Below, one piece after another: positions 14,459 through 59,754 of a stretch of DNA of 64,000 nt. The stretch is from Chloroflexota bacterium (GTDB lineage: Bacteria; Chloroflexota; DTOL01; JACQYG01), in NCBI GenBank assembly GCA_040754915.1, contig JBFMCB010000001.1, positions 4,443 to 68,442 of the forward strand. Direction: 5' to 3'. The notes below the pieces were generated by a model. It saw nothing but the letters and a program-made list of their open reading frames with translations. It did not search any database and was not told the origin of the DNA. Position numbers and translations under genes: made by a program. Positions within the stretch are counted from its first letter, which is position 1. Each line of letters starts with the position of its first letter.

Positions 14459-14677
14459 GCGTCAATGGCGGCTATTCATCGTCCTCAATACATTGTTAAG
14501 TTCACCCTCGTGCCCTTGCCCTCACCCGCGCTTCAGGGAATAGTCCAATATCCCGGCGACGATAAATACCAACCCCCTTCACCGCTTGTTGGTTATGAGG
14601 CGGCACTTCCATGCCGGGCTGGAGATCTCTAGAAGTGCAGCCGAAAAGCCGTTTTTACCGCAGAGCCCGCTGCCTGT

Positions 14678-14700
14678 GTCCCGGAGTGCAACTCCGGGAC
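14678..14700. repeat. palindromic repeat copy (GTCCCGGAGT-GCA-ACTCCGGGAC), inner-arm version of the window's REP-like family
   Basis: Perfect 10-bp arms; same inner arms as copies at 14737, 57540, 57746 and 58621. Confidence 0.7.
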
Positions 14701-14736
14701 GAGCGCAGAGATAGAAGAAAGATCCTTGCGAGCTCT

Positions 14737-14765
14737 GATGTCCCGGAGTTCAACTCCGGGACATC
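14737..14765. repeat. palindromic repeat copy (GATGTCCCGGAGTT-C-AACTCCGGGACATC)
   Basis: 29-bp perfect palindrome, 36 bp from the 14678 copy (paired arrangement like a BIME). Confidence 0.75.
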
Positions 14766-14854
14766 ACGTGGGGTTCTCGGCCGCATCTCTAGGACCGGCT
14801 AGATAGGGGAGATCAAGGCGCCCAAGTGATAGTTGGGAACAGAGTGAGAGCGAA

Positions 14855-14895
14855 GCGGGGAAGGATGGTGGAAATCCTTCCCCGCTTTCTTTTCG
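14855..14895. terminator. bidirectional intrinsic-terminator-like hairpin between convergent genes (GCGGGGAAGGAT-loop-ATCCTTCCCCGC followed by TTTCTTTTCG)
   Basis: 12-bp stem, 7-nt loop, T-rich tract on the plus strand; lies between the plus-strand lipoprotein gene and the minus-strand M1 peptidase gene whose stop is at 14905. Confidence 0.6.
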
Positions 14896-18128: not shown

Positions 18129-19169
18129 ATGAAGAGAACCGTGTTTTTGCTCGTGCTCTTAGCGCTTCTTCTGGCTGGCTGTGCCCCTCAGGAGGGGGAC
18201 AGGGTGTTGTTTTCCCAGACCGGAGACGTGGTAGCTTTCGGCCGCGACGTGAATGTGACAGCCAACGAGGTGGTTAATGGCAGCGTGGTGGCCTTTGGCG
18301 GCATGGTCAACGTTCAGGGCAAGGTCTTGCGAGATGTGGTGGCCTTTGGCGGAAACGTCTCGATCTCCGGCGAGGTATACGGTGATGTGGTGGCTTTTGG
18401 CGGAAACGTGCACCTCCAACCCACTGCCGTTCTGCACCAAGACCTGGTGGCTTTCGGTGGGGAGGTGACAAGGGAAGAGGGGGCAAAAGTCCGGGGAAGC
18501 ACGGCATGGCCCCCGGAGTCTGTGACCCGGGTCTGGCCCACACCGCTACCAACAGTGCCTCAGATCAAGCTCGAGCTTCCATTCACCACGCTGTCGACTA
18601 TGGCGGTCTATCGAGGTTGGGAGGCAGTGATTGGCTTCATGTTGGGCTTGATCAAGGGCATTCTCTCCGCCCTGGTGTTGGCGGCCCTGGCTTTCTTGGT
18701 GGCGGCCCTATTCCCAGGGCAGGTCCAGGTGGTGAAGGACACCGCGGTTGCTCAGGCCGTGCCCAGCGCGCTCGTTGGCTTCGCTACCATCTTCCTGGCC
18801 ATGGTCCTGACTATACCGGTGATGCTCTTGACCATTTGTTTATTGGGACTGGGCGCACTGGCGATGTGGGCAGTGGTGGTCATCGCTGGGTTGCTCGGCA
18901 TCACTGCGGTGGGGGCCATGGCCGGAGAGAGTATATTGGTGGCGTTCAAAGTCTCCGGCTTCACTGTGCCGGTAGCGGCTATGGTGGGTGTCCTGGCGAT
19001 TTCGCTGGTGCTTTCGCTGGTGAGCCTGGTGCCCATCGTGAACTGCGTGGGCTGGCTGTTGTGGCTGATCTTCATCACACCGGGCCTGGGTGCTGCCGTG
19101 TTGAGCAAATTCGGCACCGAGCAGCTCCGAGTTCCACCTGGCGAGCCTTCGGTTCAGCCGGGCCAGTGA
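18129..19169 (+). CDS. lipoprotein with repeated (D)VVAFGGxV beta-strand-like repeats and C-terminal polytopic membrane domain
   Basis: Signal peptide plus lipobox (LLLAGC); at least 6 repeats of VVAFGG(N/M/E)V in residues 30-115; C-terminal about 200 aa strongly hydrophobic; third gene of the sigma/anti-sigma locus. Confidence 0.65.
   Translation: MKRTVFLLVLLALLLAGCAPQEGDRVLFSQTGDVVAFGRDVNVTANEVVNGSVVAFGGMVNVQGKVLRDVVAFGGNVSISGEVYGDVVAFGGNVHLQPTAVLHQDLVAFGGEVTREEGAKVRGSTAWPPESVTRVWPTPLPTVPQIKLELPFTTLSTMAVYRGWEAVIGFMLGLIKGILSALVLAALAFLVAALFPGQVQVVKDTAVAQAVPSALVGFATIFLAMVLTIPVMLLTICLLGLGALAMWAVVVIAGLLGITAVGAMAGESILVAFKVSGFTVPVAAMVGVLAISLVLSLVSLVPIVNCVGWLLWLIFITPGLGAAVLSKFGTEQLRVPPGEPSVQPGQ
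18230..18450 (+). repeat. intragenic degenerate tandem repeats (about 30-nt units containing GTGGTGGCCTTTGGCGG) encoding the VVAFGG repeats
   Basis: gtggtagctttcggc / gtggtggcctttggcgg (x3) / ctggtggctttcggtgg visible at roughly 30-nt period. Confidence 0.6.
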
Positions 19170-19181
19170 TGCTCATTCGGT

Positions 19182-20573
19182 TTACAGGCTCACTGTCTCT
19201 CCGCGCTCGGGCACCAGGATATTACGCACCCCCAGTTCCTGTATTCCCTGGGCCAGGGCCCGGGCTGGCCCCTCTTCACCGTGGACCACGTAGACGCCTT
19301 TCAGGCTGTCTTTGGTCCGCGAGATCCACCCCAGCAAATCGTTCCGATCGGCGTGAGCGCTGAAGCCATTGATCGCCTCCACCCTGGCTCTGACCTCATA
19401 CTCCTCGCCGAAGATGCGGACGATCTTCTCCCCATCTATCAGGCGGCGGCCCAGGGTGTTCTCCGCCTGGAAGCTCACGATCAGCACCGTGTTCCGTGGG
19501 TCGCCGACGTTATGAACCAGGTGGTGCCGGATCCGGCCGGCCTCACACATACCTGAGCCGGAGATGATGATGCAGGGCTCTTTGAGGCTGTTGAGGGATT
19601 TTGACTCCTGGGAATCGCGGATGTAATGGAGCTTTTTGAAGCCAAAGGGGTCTTCGTGTCGGGCAATGTACCCGCCGGTCTCCGGGTCAAAGCACTCGGG
19701 GTGCCGGCGAAAGACCTCCGTGGCCTCCAGCGCCAGGGGGCTGTCCACGTAGATCGGCAGGCCTGGCATCTTCCCGGCTTCCCGGAGCGAATGGAGGGTT
19801 AAGACGATTTCCTGGGTACGGCCCACTGAGAAGGCCGGGACCAGGACCTTTCCCCTCCGCTCAAAGGTCTCATTTATCACCCTCTGGAGGTCATCGGCGG
19901 TCTCCTCGATGGAGCCATGAAGGCGGTCCCCGTAGGTGCTCTCGATGATGAGATAGTCCGCGTCCTTCAAAGGCACGGGGTCGCGAATGATCGGCAGGTT
20001 CTTACGACCAAGGTCGCCGGTGAAGGCCAGTCTCACCGTCTTGCGATCCTGGGTGTGCTCCAGCAAAACTATGGCCGAGCCCAGGATGTGGCCGGCATCC
20101 AGGAACGTCAGGCGGCCTGCGTTTCCCAGGTTCACCCACTGGCCGTAGGGCACGCCTTTGAACAGCGGTAGCGCCCGTTCCACGTCGGCAACGGTGTATA
20201 AGGGCTCCACCGGCGGCAGGCCGCCCTTGCTCCTTCGAAAGCTGACGTACTCGGCGTCAGCTTCCTGGATATGCCCGCTATCGCGCAAGACGGCGGTGGC
20301 CAGGTCGGCGGTGGCTGAGGTACACAAGATGTCTTTATCAAACCCCTGGCTCACCAGATTGGGGATGTTGCCGCTGTGATCGATGTGGGCATGAGAGAGG
20401 ATCAAGAGATCTATAGAGTCAGGTCGGAAGGGGAAGCGGGTGTTTCGCTCGATGCTCTCGGCCCGGTGTCCTTGAAACAGCCCGCAATCCAGCAGGATGC
20501 GCTTGTCCGCCGTCTCCAGCAGGTGTATAGAGCCGGTGACTGTTCGGGCAGCACCCCAGAAGGTGATCTTCAT
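19182..20573 (-). CDS. MBL-fold beta-CASP ribonuclease (RNase J family, TTHA0252-like)
   Basis: Start at ATG 20573 (MKITFWGAARTVTGSIHLLETADKRILLDCGLFQG); LILSHAHIDHSGNIP and TYGDRLHGSIEET... match T. thermophilus TTHA0252-type beta-CASP RNases as I recall them. The track's 5' extension (Pro/Arg/Ser-rich) is not coding. Confidence 0.85.
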   Translation of the reverse strand: MKITFWGAARTVTGSIHLLETADKRILLDCGLFQGHRAESIERNTRFPFRPDSIDLLILSHAHIDHSGNIPNLVSQGFDKDILCTSATADLATAVLRDSGHIQEADAEYVSFRRSKGGLPPVEPLYTVADVERALPLFKGVPYGQWVNLGNAGRLTFLDAGHILGSAIVLLEHTQDRKTVRLAFTGDLGRKNLPIIRDPVPLKDADYLIIESTYGDRLHGSIEETADDLQRVINETFERRGKVLVPAFSVGRTQEIVLTLHSLREAGKMPGLPIYVDSPLALEATEVFRRHPECFDPETGGYIARHEDPFGFKKLHYIRDSQESKSLNSLKEPCIIISGSGMCEAGRIRHHLVHNVGDPRNTVLIVSFQAENTLGRRLIDGEKIVRIFGEEYEVRARVEAINGFSAHADRNDLLGWISRTKDSLKGVYVVHGEEGPARALAQGIQELGVRNILVPERGETVSL

Positions 20574-34306: not shown

Positions 34307-34329
34307 GGTTCAGGAGTTCAACTCCTGAA
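34307..34329. repeat. 23-bp perfect palindrome GTTCAGGAGTT-C-AACTCCTGAAC (variant of the CCGGAGTT-N-AACTCCGG family) in the metG 5' region
   Basis: Read directly; flanked by partial outer symmetry (caactccag...aacaactccagg). Confidence 0.65.
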
Positions 34330-34399
34330 CAACTCCAGGCATGGTCATGAAACCCTTGCCCCAGATGGCGCATATTCTATCACAAACCAGTAAAAAACT

Positions 34400-35260
34400 C
34401 TAACCGCCTGGCGGCCGCTTCTCCGGGTGTTTCTCTCTCCGGCTTGACCAGACCCGGTATACATCTCTCTTGGATCGCCCCGATTCCCGGGCTACCTGGG
34501 CGGTGGCCGTCTTGCGGTCCAGGCCCGAGGCCTGCAGGTGGGCCAGGCGCTCCTGGAGTTCCTGGTCGGTGGTGGTCACCGAGTCCTCCTCTCGGGCCCC
34601 TTCGATCACCAGCGTGAACTCTCCCCGGGGCCTGGTCGTGGCAAAGTGGGCCACTTCTTCGGAGATGGTGCTACGCCGGATCTCCTCGTAAACCTTGGTG
34701 AGCTCTCGAGCAACCACGATCCTCCGGTTGCCCCAGGCCTCCCGCATCGCCTGCAAGCTGGACTCAAGACGGTGGGGTGCCTCAAACACCACCAGGGTCC
34801 TCTTCTCGTGGGCAACTGATTTCAGGAACCCCTCCCTTTTCCTAGCCTGGCGAGGGAGGTAGCCAAGGTAGACGAATTGGTCCGTGGGCAGACCGGATAC
34901 AGCCAGGGCGCTGATCAGGGCCGAGGGCCCGGGGACCGGGACCACCGGTATGCCCCGGGCAATGACCGCAGAAACCAGCTCAAAACCGGGGTCGGAAATG
35001 CCTGGCATTCCCGCATCCGACACCAGGGCCACGTCCATGCCGTCTTGGAGCACAGACAGGATCTGGCTCAGCTTGCTCAGCTTGTTGTGTTCGTGGTAAC
35101 TGGTGACCGCTGTGGCAATCCCGTGCCGGGACAGTAGGAGCCTGGTCCTCCTGGTATCCTCGGCGGCGATAAGCCTCACCTCCCGGAGCACCCGGAGGGC
35201 CCGCAGGGTGATGTCCTCTAGGTTGCCGATAGGTGTGCCGACCACAAAGAGGGTGGACAT
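34400..35260 (-). CDS. rsmI: 16S rRNA (cytidine1402-2'-O)-methyltransferase RsmI
   Basis: MSTLFVVGTPIGNLEDITLRALRVLREVRLIAAEDTRRTRLLL... tetrapyrrole-methylase fold; classic tatD-metG-rsmI neighbourhood. Confidence 0.85.
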   Translation of the reverse strand: MSTLFVVGTPIGNLEDITLRALRVLREVRLIAAEDTRRTRLLLSRHGIATAVTSYHEHNKLSKLSQILSVLQDGMDVALVSDAGMPGISDPGFELVSAVIARGIPVVPVPGPSALISALAVSGLPTDQFVYLGYLPRQARKREGFLKSVAHEKRTLVVFEAPHRLESSLQAMREAWGNRRIVVARELTKVYEEIRRSTISEEVAHFATTRPRGEFTLVIEGAREEDSVTTTDQELQERLAHLQASGLDRKTATAQVARESGRSKRDVYRVWSSRREKHPEKRPPGG

Positions 35261-35280
35261 TTTCTCTACTAGTAAAGAAA
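35261..35280. repeat. CTAG-centred palindromic motif TTTCTCTACTAGTAAAGAAA (copy 1 of 3)
   Basis: Immediately upstream of the rsmI start, in the divergent promoter region with the 35400 gene; near-identical to 55671..55690 and 57785..57802. Confidence 0.6.
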
Positions 35281-55670: not shown

Positions 55671-55690
55671 TTTCTTTGCTAGTAAAGAAA
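55671..55690. repeat. CTAG-centred palindromic motif TTTCTTTGCTAGTAAAGAAA (copy 2 of 3), 5 nt after the acdh stop
   Basis: One mismatch (G/A, G-U compatible as RNA) from a perfect 20-bp palindrome. Confidence 0.6.
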
Positions 55691-57539: not shown

Positions 57540-57576
57540 CCCCGATGTCCCGGAGTTGAACTCCGGGACATCGGGG
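57540..57576. repeat. 37-bp perfect palindrome CCCCGATGTCCCGGAGTT-G-AACTCCGGGACATCGGGG (full-length REP-like copy), intergenic etfA / Fe-S oxidoreductase
   Basis: Read directly; 18-bp arms. Confidence 0.8.
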
Positions 57577-57602
57577 TCATCCTCGTCCCATAGGGGGCTT
57601 TC

Positions 57603-59684
57603 ATGGGGTCGATCTTCCGCGACACCTTCTGGAACGTACCGGTGTGGGCTCAGGCCGTCCATTACCTCCTGTCCATAGCCGCCCTGCTCATTCTCAGCTA
57701 CGGCGTCTACCGGCGGGTCTCCCTCTGGCGCCAGGGCCAGAAAACCCCCCGATGTCCCGGAGTTAAACTCCGGGACATCGGGGGTTCTTTACTAGTAAAG
57801 AAGCGGGTGAAGGCCTTTCTGCTCTACGCCATCGCACAGTTGCGCCTGCTCAGGGAGAGGTATCCGGGGATAATGCACCTCTTTATCTTCTGGGGCATGG
57901 TGGTCCTCTTCCTGGGCACGGCCACGGTCACCCTGGACTATGACGTGGCCCACCTGATATTCCGGACCCAGTTTCTAACCGATGGATTCTACCTGGTTTT
58001 CAAGCTTACTTTGGACATCTTAGGCGCCTTGCTCATCGTTGGCGTGCTCCTGGCGGCTTACCGGCGCTACGTCCTCCGCCCTTCGAGGTTGGATAACCTC
58101 TGGCAGGATGCCTATCAGCTCGGGATGCTCTTCGCCATCGGGCTCATGGGCTTTCTCCTGGAGGCCATGCGCCTCGCGGCCTTTAAGCAGCCGGAGGTGG
58201 CCATCTGGTCTCCGGTGGGCTATCTTCTGGCTCAGCCCTTCTGGGGCGTCACTAAGGAGACCATCCGGCCCTACTATGTGGGAACCTGGTTCGTCCACTC
58301 CACCATGGCCCTGGTCTTCATCGCCAGCCTGCCCTACACTAAGCTCTGGCACATCGTCGCCTCTCCGACCAACATCTTCTTCCGCTCCTTGAGGCCAGCC
58401 GGGGAGCTCTTGCCCATCGAGAACCTCGAGGAACAGGAGACCTTCGGTGTGGGGAAGTTCGAGGAATTCACCTGGAAACAGCGCCTGGATTTCGATGCCT
58501 GTACCCGCTGTGGCCGCTGCCAGGACGCCTGTCCGGCCTGGGCCAGCGGCGCCTCGCTCTCCCCCAAGAAACTGATCCTGGAGCTGCAGCAATGCATGCT
58601 GGAAAAGCCCACCCTGGATACCCCCGATGTCCCCCCGATGTCCCGGAGTTCAACTCCGAGACATCGGGGGACATCGGGCTCGAAAGACCTGCACGGGAAG
58701 GTGGTGGCCGCCGACGAGCTCTGGGCCTGCACCACCTGCCGCGCCTGTGTGCAGGAGTGCCCGGTCTTCATCGAGCACGTGGATACCATTGTGGACATGC
58801 GCCGCTATCTCACCCTCTCCGAGGGGGCGGTGCCGGCGACTACCGCCACCACCCTGAAGCAGATGACTAACCAAGGTAATCCATGGGGGCTCTCCAAGAA
58901 TGACCGGCTGAAGTGGGCTGAGGGTCTGGACGTGAAGGCCATCGCCCCGGGCCAGGAGGTGGAGTATCTCTATTGGGTGGGGTGTTCGGCAGCTTACGAC
59001 GCGCGAAACCAGAAGGTGGCAAAGGCCATGGTGCGGGTGCTTAAGGCGGCCGGGGTGGACTTCGCCATCCTGGGCAACCAGGAGAGATGCTGTGGGGACT
59101 CTGCCCGGCGCTTAGGTGAGGAGTACCTCTTCCAGACTCTGGCCATGGAGAACATCGATAATCTAAAGAAATACCGTTTCCAGAAGATCGTCACTGCCTG
59201 CCCCCACGGCTACAACACGATCAAGAACGAGTACCCGCAGCTCGGCGGAAATTACACCGTCATCCACCACACTGAGTTATTGGCCCAGTTGGTCCAGGAG
59301 GGAAGGCTCGAGCTTTCCAGGCCTTTATACAAGAACATCACCTACCACGATTCGTGCTACCTGGGCCGGTACAACGACATCTTCCAGGCACCCCGCCAGG
59401 TATTGGCCGCCCTCCCCGGCGCTCTGCTCAAGGAGATGGACCGGTCTGGCGATCGGGGCTTCTGCTGCGGCGGTGGCGGCGGCCAGATGTGGATGGAGGC
59501 CAAGGTAGAAAAACGGGTGAACCACATTCGGCTGGAGGATGCCCTGTCGATCAAGCCGGACTGTGTGGGCACCGCCTGCCCCTTCTGCCTGACCATGTTC
59601 GTGGACGCGGCGAAGGTCAAGGGCATCGAAGACTCCTTACCGGTAAAAGACGTGGTGGAGCTCATCGCCGAAGCCTTGGTTTAG
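57603..59684 (+). CDS. membrane-anchored Fe-S oxidoreductase (NarI-like N-terminal membrane domain, 2x[4Fe-4S] ferredoxin motifs, two CCG/HdrD-like Cys-rich domains); putative Etf:quinone oxidoreductase
   Basis: 693 aa; 5 N-terminal hydrophobic helices; CTRCGRCQDACP and CTTCRACVQECP cluster motifs; CCG-domain motifs (CSAAYDARNQ...CCGDSA; CYLGRYN...GFCCGGGGG). Gene order acdh-etfB-etfA-FeS matches syntrophic butyrate oxidiser loci as I recall them. Contains two in-frame palindromic-repeat insertions. Confidence 0.85.
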   Translation: MGSIFRDTFWNVPVWAQAVHYLLSIAALLILSYGVYRRVSLWRQGQKTPRCPGVKLRDIGGSLLVKKRVKAFLLYAIAQLRLLRERYPGIMHLFIFWGMVVLFLGTATVTLDYDVAHLIFRTQFLTDGFYLVFKLTLDILGALLIVGVLLAAYRRYVLRPSRLDNLWQDAYQLGMLFAIGLMGFLLEAMRLAAFKQPEVAIWSPVGYLLAQPFWGVTKETIRPYYVGTWFVHSTMALVFIASLPYTKLWHIVASPTNIFFRSLRPAGELLPIENLEEQETFGVGKFEEFTWKQRLDFDACTRCGRCQDACPAWASGASLSPKKLILELQQCMLEKPTLDTPDVPPMSRSSTPRHRGTSGSKDLHGKVVAADELWACTTCRACVQECPVFIEHVDTIVDMRRYLTLSEGAVPATTATTLKQMTNQGNPWGLSKNDRLKWAEGLDVKAIAPGQEVEYLYWVGCSAAYDARNQKVAKAMVRVLKAAGVDFAILGNQERCCGDSARRLGEEYLFQTLAMENIDNLKKYRFQKIVTACPHGYNTIKNEYPQLGGNYTVIHHTELLAQLVQEGRLELSRPLYKNITYHDSCYLGRYNDIFQAPRQVLAALPGALLKEMDRSGDRGFCCGGGGGQMWMEAKVEKRVNHIRLEDALSIKPDCVGTACPFCLTMFVDAAKVKGIEDSLPVKDVVELIAEALV
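57746..57784. repeat. 39-bp perfect palindrome CCCCCGATGTCCCGGAGTT-A-AACTCCGGGACATCGGGGG located in-frame inside the Fe-S oxidoreductase CDS (encodes TPRCPGVKLRDIGG)
   Basis: Read directly; lies in the loop after the first TM helix; reading frame uninterrupted. Confidence 0.8.
57785..57802. repeat. CTAG-centred perfect palindrome TTCTTTACTAGTAAAGAA (copy 3 of 3), in-frame inside the Fe-S oxidoreductase CDS immediately after the REP-like copy
   Basis: 18-bp perfect palindrome abutting 57746..57784; encodes SLLVKK. Confidence 0.6.
58621..58678. repeat. about 58-bp nested palindrome (CCCCCGATGT + CCCCCCGATGTCCCGGAGTT-C-AACTCCGAGACATCGGGGG + ACATCGGG) in-frame inside the Fe-S oxidoreductase CDS between the two ferredoxin-type Cys motifs
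   Basis: Outer-arm unit CCCCGATGT duplicated; one arm mismatch (CCGAG vs CCGGG); encodes ...DTPDVPPMSRSSTPRHRGTSGS... Confidence 0.8.
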
Positions 59685-59706
59685 AGGCTCAAAAGTGTCA
59701 GAGGCA

Positions 59707-59726
59707 TCCCCGATGTCGACATCGGG
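59707..59726. repeat. 20-bp perfect palindrome CCCCGATGTC-GACATCGGGG (outer-arm-only 'minimal' copy), intergenic Fe-S oxidoreductase / acdh
   Basis: Shares the CCCCGATGTC outer arms of the long copies but lacks the CCGGAGTT inner arms. Confidence 0.7.
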
Positions 59727-59754
59727 GCGATTCTGCGAAAGGGGGTAAACGACT

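Follow-up and report, generated by a model that had tools for sequence, protein, structure and literature searches.

A perfectly symmetric miniature palindromic repeat, dispersed among and inserted within genes of uncultivated groundwater Chloroflexota

The 64,000-nucleotide (nt) stretch of Chloroflexota DNA analysed here (the window: assembly GCA_040754915.1, contig JBFMCB010000001.1, positions 4,443 to 68,442, forward strand) contains seven copies of a short palindrome that recurs at unrelated loci in a group of uncultivated groundwater Chloroflexota. The palindrome is a discrete unit of which copies arise at new positions, in many cases only a few kb away, and its landing sites are intergenic DNA, untranslated regions (UTRs), hairpin loops, other mobile elements and coding sequence. 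We consider it very probable that this is an active, selfish palindromic repeat that is tolerated in frame in genes. The fuller reading that we favour, with a probability of roughly 0.6, is that of an active, selfish, lineage-specific family of symmetric palindromes that moves as a hairpin and is mobilised in trans. Within it, the single-stranded hairpin as route of movement is tentative, with odds that fall somewhat short of even.

Its consensus, CCTGATGTCCCGGAGTT-S-AACTCCGGGACATCAGG, is 35 nt long, symmetric and built around the core GATGTCCCGGAGTT-N-AACTCCGGGACATC. The unit measures 35-37 bp, and copies range from 23 to 41 nt, occasionally up to 53 nt. All seven copies listed by the first-pass annotation of this DNA exist in the window; five are extragenic and two lie within an open reading frame (ORF). 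They are as follows (no strand assigned):

14678..14700: core-only copy of 23 nt, inner arms GTCCCGGAGT-GCA-ACTCCGGGAC with loop GCA, inside a repeat resembling a MITE (transposable element of the miniature inverted-repeat type)
14736..14766: perfect palindrome of 31 nt with TGAT/ATCA (type I) arms, centre C, inside the same MITE-like repeat
34308..34330: copy of a variant subfamily, GTTCAGGAGTT-C-AACTCCTGAAC, in the metG 5' UTR
57540..57576: copy A, perfect palindrome of 37 nt with CCCCGAT arms, centre G
57746..57784: copy B, perfect palindrome of 39 nt, in frame in an ORF, centre A
58622..58679: copy C, nested, a full element within a second outer-arm pair, centre C, one arm mismatch
59708..59727: copy D, a remnant with outer arms only, CCCCGATGTC|GACATCGGGG

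These counts are far above those expected by chance. Within the window, CCGGAGTTNAACTCCGG with at most two mismatches is matched six times against 0.05 expected, and none of 100 shuffles reached six; the half-arm GATGTCCCGGAGTT is found eight times (0.4 expected) and GGAGTTNAACTCC six times (0.16 expected). An independent repeat finder also returned the palindrome family, as D1 and D2, as the top dispersed repeats of the window. Four of the seven copies lie within 2.2 kb (P ~0.002-0.005) and have private CCCCGAT arms in common; they make up a local subfamily in the 57.5-59.7 kb region. The outer arm CCCCGATGTC is found exactly nine times, always within 57540-59727. The TGAT arms of the 14736 copy are the common type. 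The clustering, together with the private arm variant, points to local propagation.

Using the palindrome pattern itself to retrieve loci of relatives (given L numbers below), we collected 83 copies, 70 of which are distinct in their 41-nt context. In the five pairs just outside the 23-nt core the arms are complementary at a frequency of 0.80-0.90, falling to 0.62 and 0.42 in the next two pairs and to chance (~0.28) past the seventh, so that the palindrome unit is discrete. A core of 29 nt is kept across subfamilies. The earlier description of the repeat as modular is borne out by the presence of inner-only, outer-only and nested forms, and one arm is truncated in 13 of 74 copies. Arms were also said to be perfectly complementary, which does not hold for the copy at 58622-58679, where CCGG...CCGA and unequal runs of C and G are found. 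Covariation is limited to the outer three arm pairs and may be compatible with subfamily descent. The centre base is G in 42 copies, C in 33, T in five and A in three. It does vary, as was first noted; however, in a palindrome with an odd centre, C and G (or A and T) denote one element on opposite strands, and much of the apparent loop variation is therefore not variation.

In a scan of one genome per species, the 23-nt core was found ~27 times in the Chloroflexi metagenome-assembled genome (MAG) JACQYG01 and twice in the MAG DYIS01 of assembly GCA_020723545.1, while the other genomes held isolated core matches only, most of which look like chance. A metagenome scan added 36 stretches, nearly all from sample Ga0315314. 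Where they overlap, the stretches from JACQYG01, DYIS01 and Ga0315314 are 90-97% identical to the window at the nucleotide level and represent its own lineage. The family is thus dispersed, as had been proposed, with ~70 distinct copies at unrelated loci in the sister genomes and metagenomes searched. It is present in independent assemblies (NCBI MAGs, two JGI metagenomes and one Logan assembly) and absent from the viral contig collection. A search of the searchable literature did not retrieve the palindrome sequence, only unrelated primer matches. Exact look-up of five window proteins matched only EtfB, on contig L071, which stops short of site A; the peptidase was not on record. As a side observation, the DYIS01 contigs L026, L007 and L074, deposited as 'Ktedonobacter racemifer isolate FI88_62_8', are 91-96% identical to the window and JACQYG over common genes, and the FI88_62_8 MAG therefore belongs to the uncultivated lineage under a species label that looks wrong.

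The strongest indication of recent activity comes from the sites of copies A to D (57.5-59.7 kb), at which four relatives could be compared with the window:

L074 (DYIS), 91% identical to the window: A, B, C and D all empty
L032 (JACRBP, GCA_016234455.1), 93% over the gapped alignment: A, B and C empty; D filled (G)
L073, 96.2% over 9.9 kb: A filled (C); B empty; C filled (C); D empty
L068, 96.9%: A and B not covered; C filled (G); D filled (C)
Window: A filled (G); B filled (A); C filled (C); D outer arms only

Presence or absence of the palindrome differs at all four clustered sites among these five near-identical strains, a strong polymorphism of the kind that the first-pass annotation had suggested looking for. 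Site A of L073 is a clean 38-nt insertion into GCAAGC^TCATCC, consisting of the 37-nt unit plus a junction repeat of 1-2 nt. L073 keeps GCGGGCAAGC beside copy A, and the window has lost those 11 nt. None of seven filled/empty comparisons revealed a target duplication beyond the 1-2 nt ambiguity. Site D carries the full 37-nt element in L032 (centre G) and L068 (centre C) and an unrelated 10 nt in L073 and L074, where it is empty; in the window, the inner 17 nt, CCGGAGTT-S-AACTCCGG, have been lost exactly at GTC|GAC. Copy C occurs in L073 and L068 but in neither L032 nor L074. The L068 copy is centred on G and, relative to the window, has compensating -1/+1 indels in its arms, so that another frame is translated and the gene is still open. 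Palindromes account for most indels of at least 6 nt that separate the window from three sister strains over the 3-10 kb compared: four of six (L073), four of four (L032) and one of two (L068) lie at or beside a palindrome.

The first-pass annotation had missed that an intact ORF contains the copies at 57746 and 58622. Their host gene is:

57603..59684, + strand: membrane Fe-S oxidoreductase of 693 amino acids (aa), 4Fe-4S plus CCG domains (MEW6230731.1)

The gene sits in an etfBA/acyl-CoA dehydrogenase cluster on a contig of 75,978 nt that also encodes MEW6230692.1, and its ORF is intact despite the two in-frame palindromes. The orthologue P0001 (669 aa, 96% identical) is without exactly the two insert segments, of 11 and 13 aa. 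Copy B encodes PRCPGVKLRDIGG and lengthens the gene by a net 33 nt (11 aa). Neither L032, L073 and L074 nor any of the eight distant homologues has it, and the empty alleles are of ancestral length. Copy C adds a net 39 nt (13 aa) to a linker of variable length between two Cys motifs. PRCPGVKLRDIGG and PDVPEFNSGTSG are the peptide segments expected in insert-bearing proteins. A further observation concerns L073, where a 133-nt deletion (L073:3992; window 57803-57935) right after a palindrome of a second family, described below, splits the Fe-S oxidoreductase gene into ORFs of 62 and 579 aa; the split gene is either a pseudogene or a minority allele.

Other genes of the relatives have received the palindrome in the same way. 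In-frame copies are present in Pfam-verified URO-D (hemE), ferrochelatase (hemH), HemN-like and another radical-SAM gene, as well as in genes for AOR (aldehyde:ferredoxin oxidoreductase), FhaA and a second FHA protein; in the AOR gene, the palindrome splits the AFOR_N match in two. Altogether, at least seven of the relatives' copies lie inside Pfam-verified genes, and at least nine copies overall in housekeeping ORFs, with translated inserts of 8-19 aa. The palindrome can be read in three frames. The first yields PDVPE(F/L)NSGTSG. The second, (L/P)MSRSSTPGH(Q/R), is open only with C or T as centre on the sense strand, since a G there would make a TGA stop, and each of the five copies translated in this MSRSSTPG frame carries a sense-strand C. 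The third yields PRCPGV(K/Q/E)LRDIG; in this frame the common CCTGAT arm contains a TGA stop and the CCCCGAT arm is open. Coding copies were seen only where the reading frame stays open, which is the pattern that purifying selection against broken genes would leave.

Once inserted, copies are frequently rearranged. Among ~10 orthologous pairs of filled sites, only 3-8% diverged, at least five differ by a G/C flip of the centre, a rate far above that of substitution and such as inversion of a 1-nt loop would produce. Nested copies with GTC|GAC as point of insertion are found in copy C of the window and at L042:1840, arms are duplicated on one side in L040 and L043, and host DNA beside the palindrome is deleted in the window (11 nt) and in L073 (133 nt). 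Centre-break revision of palindromes is an established process. Template-switch mutation at quasipalindromes is also established (PMC7202029). We propose that the palindrome would move as a single-stranded hairpin at a replication fork or break, mobilised in trans by an activity that the window would not encode. By forming a hairpin or cruciform, each inserted copy might then become a hotspot where the centre breaks and templates are switched. Such a hotspot would give rise to G/C flips, to removal of the inner 17 nt exactly at GTC|GAC, to a second copy at the same centre, to one-arm duplications and truncations and to deletions of adjacent host DNA. As for the driver, an enzyme of the RAYT (REP-associated tyrosine transposase) or IS200-like HUH type is a possibility that we regard as doubtful; the same holds for host replication and repair on their own, and some other enzyme appears less likely again.

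Several observations weigh against the reading we favour. In six filled/empty pairs other than site A of L073, the palindrome stands in place of 1-16 unrelated nt, which could reflect an insertion accompanied or followed by a deletion, or else an imprecise excision that left the 'empty' allele. The distribution of copies A and C versus D among the strains violates the four-gamete test, so that the strains must have recombined, or copies must have been gained and lost recurrently. No mobilising enzyme was identified in the window ORFs checked or in 361 kb of element-rich loci. Because the loci of relatives were retrieved through the palindrome pattern, copy density, clustering beyond the window and core invariance are biased. 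Some intergenic copies may have a cellular function. Finally, the AlphaFold2 model of the host protein is poor (pLDDT 58.5), with both inserts in non-helical segments of low confidence, and a model of this quality does not demonstrate that insert-bearing proteins are functional.

The first-pass annotation had called the family REP-like, after the repetitive extragenic palindromes (REPs), and the palindromes could indeed be classical REPs, or REPINs (two inverted REPs around a short spacer, which fold into one larger hairpin and replicate as a unit), moved by a RAYT encoded elsewhere in the genome; in a REPtron the cognate RAYT gene is flanked by the repeats. A size of 23-41 bp, high copy number, restriction to a lineage and the potential to form hairpins all fit HUH transposition, as does the lack of target duplication, which is expected of single-strand transposition. 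Sharp boundaries and the conserved 29-nt core suggest sequence-specific recognition. Moreover, intragenic REPs are documented in other phyla, and T. roseum, a member of the Chloroflexi, has GTAG REPs (PMC3733652). However, neither end of the palindrome carries an unpaired GTAG or CGTC. Among 69 copies oriented by their centre base, GTAG occurs four times on the left and twice on the right, CGTC four times and once, and the flanks are symmetric; flank asymmetry with centre-base orientation is thus absent. The arms are perfect, whereas those of REPs are bulged, and many copies are intragenic and in frame, so that the label does not hold in the strict sense. No Y1/HUH gene was detected in the checked window ORFs or in the 361 kb of loci, and the 20 window ORFs scanned with Pfam, including ORFs of 108-234 aa, are all housekeeping, as are those between paired palindrome copies, none of which is a Y1 gene. 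A tblastn search for RAYT over the window and the 361 kb returned only noise, in a weak test given that its queries were approximate consensus sequences and that it covered <10% of a genome; the best match (in L011) was a membrane-protein fragment and was discarded. The earlier remark that the window has no RAYT is consistent with the ORFs checked and says little on the whole genome. Overall, we judge a classical REP/REPIN origin unlikely. Alternatively, no dedicated enzyme may be involved, and host replication and repair alone would both propagate and rearrange the palindromes, through template switching to a nearby hairpin, SbcCD-like breakage at the centre or capture of freed hairpin DNA by end joining at breaks. 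The variable target loss (1-16 nt), junction homology of only 1-2 nt, one-sided truncations, arm duplications, frequent centre inversion, exact central deletion, nesting at the centre and adjacent deletions would all be products of such processes. One subfamily is tightly clustered locally, complete symmetry leaves nothing for an oriented transposase to read, and the second, unrelated palindrome family keeps its symmetry through a CG-to-TA double change. Yet these processes are universal and only this lineage has amplified the palindrome; its copies occur at dozens of unlinked loci and not just locally; a constant unit of 35-37 nt at unrelated sites is easier to obtain with an activity that recognises the element; and there is no direct evidence for end joining or free hairpin intermediates. 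Therefore, spread by repair alone is conceivable, and we would not bet on it. Its boldest form, in which a 35-bp palindrome spreads without a dedicated transposase, into essential genes as well, with its hairpin as both substrate and target of host replication and repair, through breakage at the centre, release or copying of the hairpin and its capture at forks or breaks nearby, we rate as rather improbable.

A different view is that the copies are functional hairpins of the host, kept by selection as terminators or attenuators, stabilisers of mRNA, or binding sites of nucleoid proteins or regulators. Folded as RNA, the hairpins are computed to be highly stable (-38 to -48 kcal/mol, z ~ -8). 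Several copies follow stop codons or lie between operon genes, as between atpA and atpG in L026 and L030 and between etfA and the Fe-S oxidoreductase gene, where copy A (-38.2 kcal/mol) is placed between the etfA stop codon (57532) and the next gene start (57603). The variant at 34308-34330 is 15 nt upstream of the likely metG start (ATG 34292, minus strand) in the 5' UTR beside the ribosome-binding site: GGAG lies 8 nt upstream of that ATG, and in translation from 34292 the MetRS Pfam domain begins at residue 5. In L006 a related variant, GGTTCAGGAGTTGCACTCCTGAACC, abuts a canonical copy, so that the 34308 variant represents a minor subfamily, not a coincidental match; a terminator-like hairpin of the gene upstream of metG is found at 34402-34416. 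In L017 and L036 a copy occupies the loop of a terminator-like hairpin, the outer-arm pairs covary, and copy B followed by TTCTTTAC fits the pattern of an intrinsic terminator. Given these stabilities and the pattern at copy B, effects on expression are possible. Against such a role stand the copies inside housekeeping ORFs and the differences in presence between 96-97%-identical strains at every site examined, which together make a structural function unlikely as a general explanation. In addition, six of the seven window copies have no T-tract and do not fit an intrinsic terminator. Rfam gave no match in the window at the gathering threshold and, with E up to 10, only chance miRNA-like hairpins. 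The first-pass annotation had deduced selection on hairpin structure from perfect arms and a variable loop. That does not follow, because a C/G centre reflects orientation or inversion, because recent copying and intrastrand template-switch correction also give identical arms, and because the covariation, at three outer pairs only, may be a matter of subfamily descent. Host function as the reason for the family as a whole is thus improbable. Lastly, chance similarity or an artefact of assembly or sequencing could be imagined, since many of the relatives' copies are at contig ends (L006, L009, L020, L067), which indicates that the palindromes disturb short-read assembly. The palindrome is not known to resemble the Illumina, Nextera or SMRTbell adaptors. 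The shuffles (0 of 100 reach the observed counts), the occurrence in independent assemblies and the ORFs that read through copies in frame make this explanation extremely improbable.

Two preferences for target sites were considered and set aside. The palindrome lies in the loop of a terminator-like hairpin, AAAAAGCCAGAC...GTCTGGCTTCCTTTT, at L017:3967-4019, giving a perfect palindrome of 53 nt, and at the same site L036 (1290-1345) has one more pair of outer arms, with a centre base opposite to that of L017. The long palindromes of L008, L017 and L022 raised the possibility that pre-existing hairpins are systematic targets; flank complementarity is at chance past the seventh pair, so that hairpin loops are occasional targets and not the rule. 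An AAR motif was suggested by AAA or AAG in six of seven replaced segments; being post hoc and in conflict with the clean insertion at site A, it is a weak lead at most.

The two copies near 14.7 kb belong to a different context:

14628..14793, + strand: MITE-like composite repeat of ~165 nt, CTAGAAG(T/C)GCAGCCGAAAAGCC ... GGTTCTCGGCCGCATCTCTAG, holding both 14.7-kb palindromes

The first-pass annotation had described the two as a pair 36 bp apart, comparable to a bacterial interspersed mosaic element (BIME). The gap is in fact 35 nt, both copies are embedded in the composite repeat, which has imperfect terminal inverted repeats of ~22 nt (17 of 22 matching), and the predicted fold of the pair is two separate hairpins. 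The repeat recurs with different flanks at L061:165-329 (97% identical) and, at 78% identity, at L063:528-661, where the first hairpin is missing and which is therefore an empty site for the 14678 copy. A variant form is found in L043 and L041, and the 14678 hairpin has identical flanks in L061, L043 and L041. The orthologous intergenic region of L072 is without window 14612-14866. Hence a MITE-like element, too, has been invaded by the palindromes or carries them along. A structured RNA gene at 14.4-14.9 kb was considered and rejected (Rfam chance hairpins only; no tRNA or tmRNA by ARAGORN), and the core as a mimic of the tRNA T-arm fails on base pairing. The left end of the repeat (TCTAG) supplies the TAG stop of the upstream gene at L061:165-170 and L063:528-533, and a 69-nt segment (window 14489-14557) is missing from the L072 intergenic region apart from the MITE-like insertion. 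At L036:2096-2252, an insertion of ~155 nt relative to L017, with inverted repeats CACCGCGGAGAACGC ... GCACTCTGCGGTTAAA and flanks TTTACTGA / TTTACCAGTAAA, probably represents a further MITE family, one with a relationship to the L043/L041 variant of the 14.6-kb element; a similar insertion of 117 nt is present at L075:5385-5501.

Other repeats were seen in passing. A second dispersed palindrome family, TTCTTTACTAGTAAAGAA (18 nt), occurs in the window at 35262-35279, 55672-55689 and 57785-57802, in L009, L011, L015, L022, L058 and L065, and, as exact matches, twice in viral contigs. Its copies include one placed 1 nt upstream of a start codon and one placed 5 nt past a stop codon. A further one, within the Fe-S oxidoreductase ORF, encodes SLLVKK with no change in length relative to homologues and abuts copy B; the orthologous place in L074 reads TTCTTTACCGGTAAAGAA, a symmetric CG-to-TA change that preserves the palindrome. 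Copy B and this T-rich second palindrome (57746-57802) together fit the terminator pattern on both strands, inside the ORF, and the region is a possible site of intragenic attenuation in this strain only. Unrelated to the palindromes, three tandem 51-nt repeats (77-88% identical) at 18282-18410 are overlapped by two long open frames on the + strand, 18129-19169 and 18506-19363.

Why this repeat deserves attention becomes clear from what is settled elsewhere: small palindromic repeats are common, and movement is settled only for RAYT/GTAG REPs among them. At the four sites in 2.2 kb, near-identical strains show a cleanly inserted copy, a deletion beside a copy, a lost core, a nested copy and inverted centres, and such a strain series could distinguish enzyme-driven from repair-driven spread. 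If true, enzyme-free spread would make the palindrome a self-propagating structure and not an enzyme-mobilised element. Additions of 8-19 residues to enzymes of haem synthesis and electron transfer and to the Fe-S oxidoreductase make it a real source of protein variation, and in practical terms it is a cause of mis-annotation and contig breaks in Chloroflexota MAGs.

Among known systems, REPs and REPINs come first to mind (PMC3733652, PMC3116915). Like them, the palindrome is a short GC-rich hairpin repeat of 20-40 bp, repeated many times and amplified in particular lineages, without target duplication, occasionally intragenic and with subfamilies that differ by complementary arm changes. Unlike them, it has no GTAG, its arms are perfect and unbulged, and it has no head or tail; many of its copies are in frame in genes, nesting occurs at the exact centre, and no RAYT was found in the sampled sequence. 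GTAG and CGTC tags define both REP superfamilies, GTAG being the RAYT cleavage site (PMC3733652), and the palindrome has neither as an end tag. Classical REPs are mainly extragenic and placed downstream of ORFs (PMC3733652); of the window copies, five of seven are extragenic and two lie in an ORF. Nor does it form REPINs or BIMEs, since the 14678/14736 pair is part of a ~165-nt repeat with terminal inverted repeats of its own and the symmetric unit has no definable orientation. Similar in behaviour are the Rickettsia palindromic elements (RPEs), which Ogata et al. reportedly described in 2000 as lying in frame in genes. As with CGTC REPs and RPEs (PMC3733652), our palindromes lie in frame in housekeeping genes that are left intact and add short peptides (copies B and C; hemE, hemH, hemN-like, AOR and FHA genes). 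No dedicated transposase is known for CGTC REPs (PMC3733652). The palindrome differs from CGTC REPs and from RPE-4/6 in the missing CGTC tag, and from RPE-1, of 100-150 bp and alphaproteobacterial, in its length of 35-37 nt, its unrelated sequence and its phylum.

Two further groups of elements offer parallels. Viewed as a pair of 17-nt inverted repeats that abut each other, the 35-nt unit resembles a non-autonomous MITE (PMC3184786, PMC10969869), and MITEs are sometimes in frame in genes (PMC3184786, PMC10969869). However, MITEs are 70-300 bp long with fixed target-site duplications, and the palindrome has neither; it is the 14628-14793 composite that resembles one. SDR1-8, the small dispersed repeats of cyanobacteria, which Elhai et al. 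reportedly presented in 2008 in Genome Res. 18:1484, are mobile hairpin repeats of 21-27 nt with compensatory changes and, like our palindrome, insert into themselves and into other small elements. No enzyme is known to be associated with them, and SDRs are not known to show frequent in-frame coding insertions or centre flipping; they belong to an unrelated phylum, are unrelated in sequence and are not perfect 35-nt palindromes. Central-base inversion, for its part, is explained without selection by hairpin loop inversions. Template switching at quasipalindromes would likewise explain perfect arms and symmetric double changes without selection (PMC7202029), but it acts on existing repeats and does not alone explain dispersal to dozens of unlinked loci. 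What we describe is therefore an untagged, perfectly symmetric miniature palindromic repeat in Chloroflexota that works like intragenic REPs, RPEs and SDRs.

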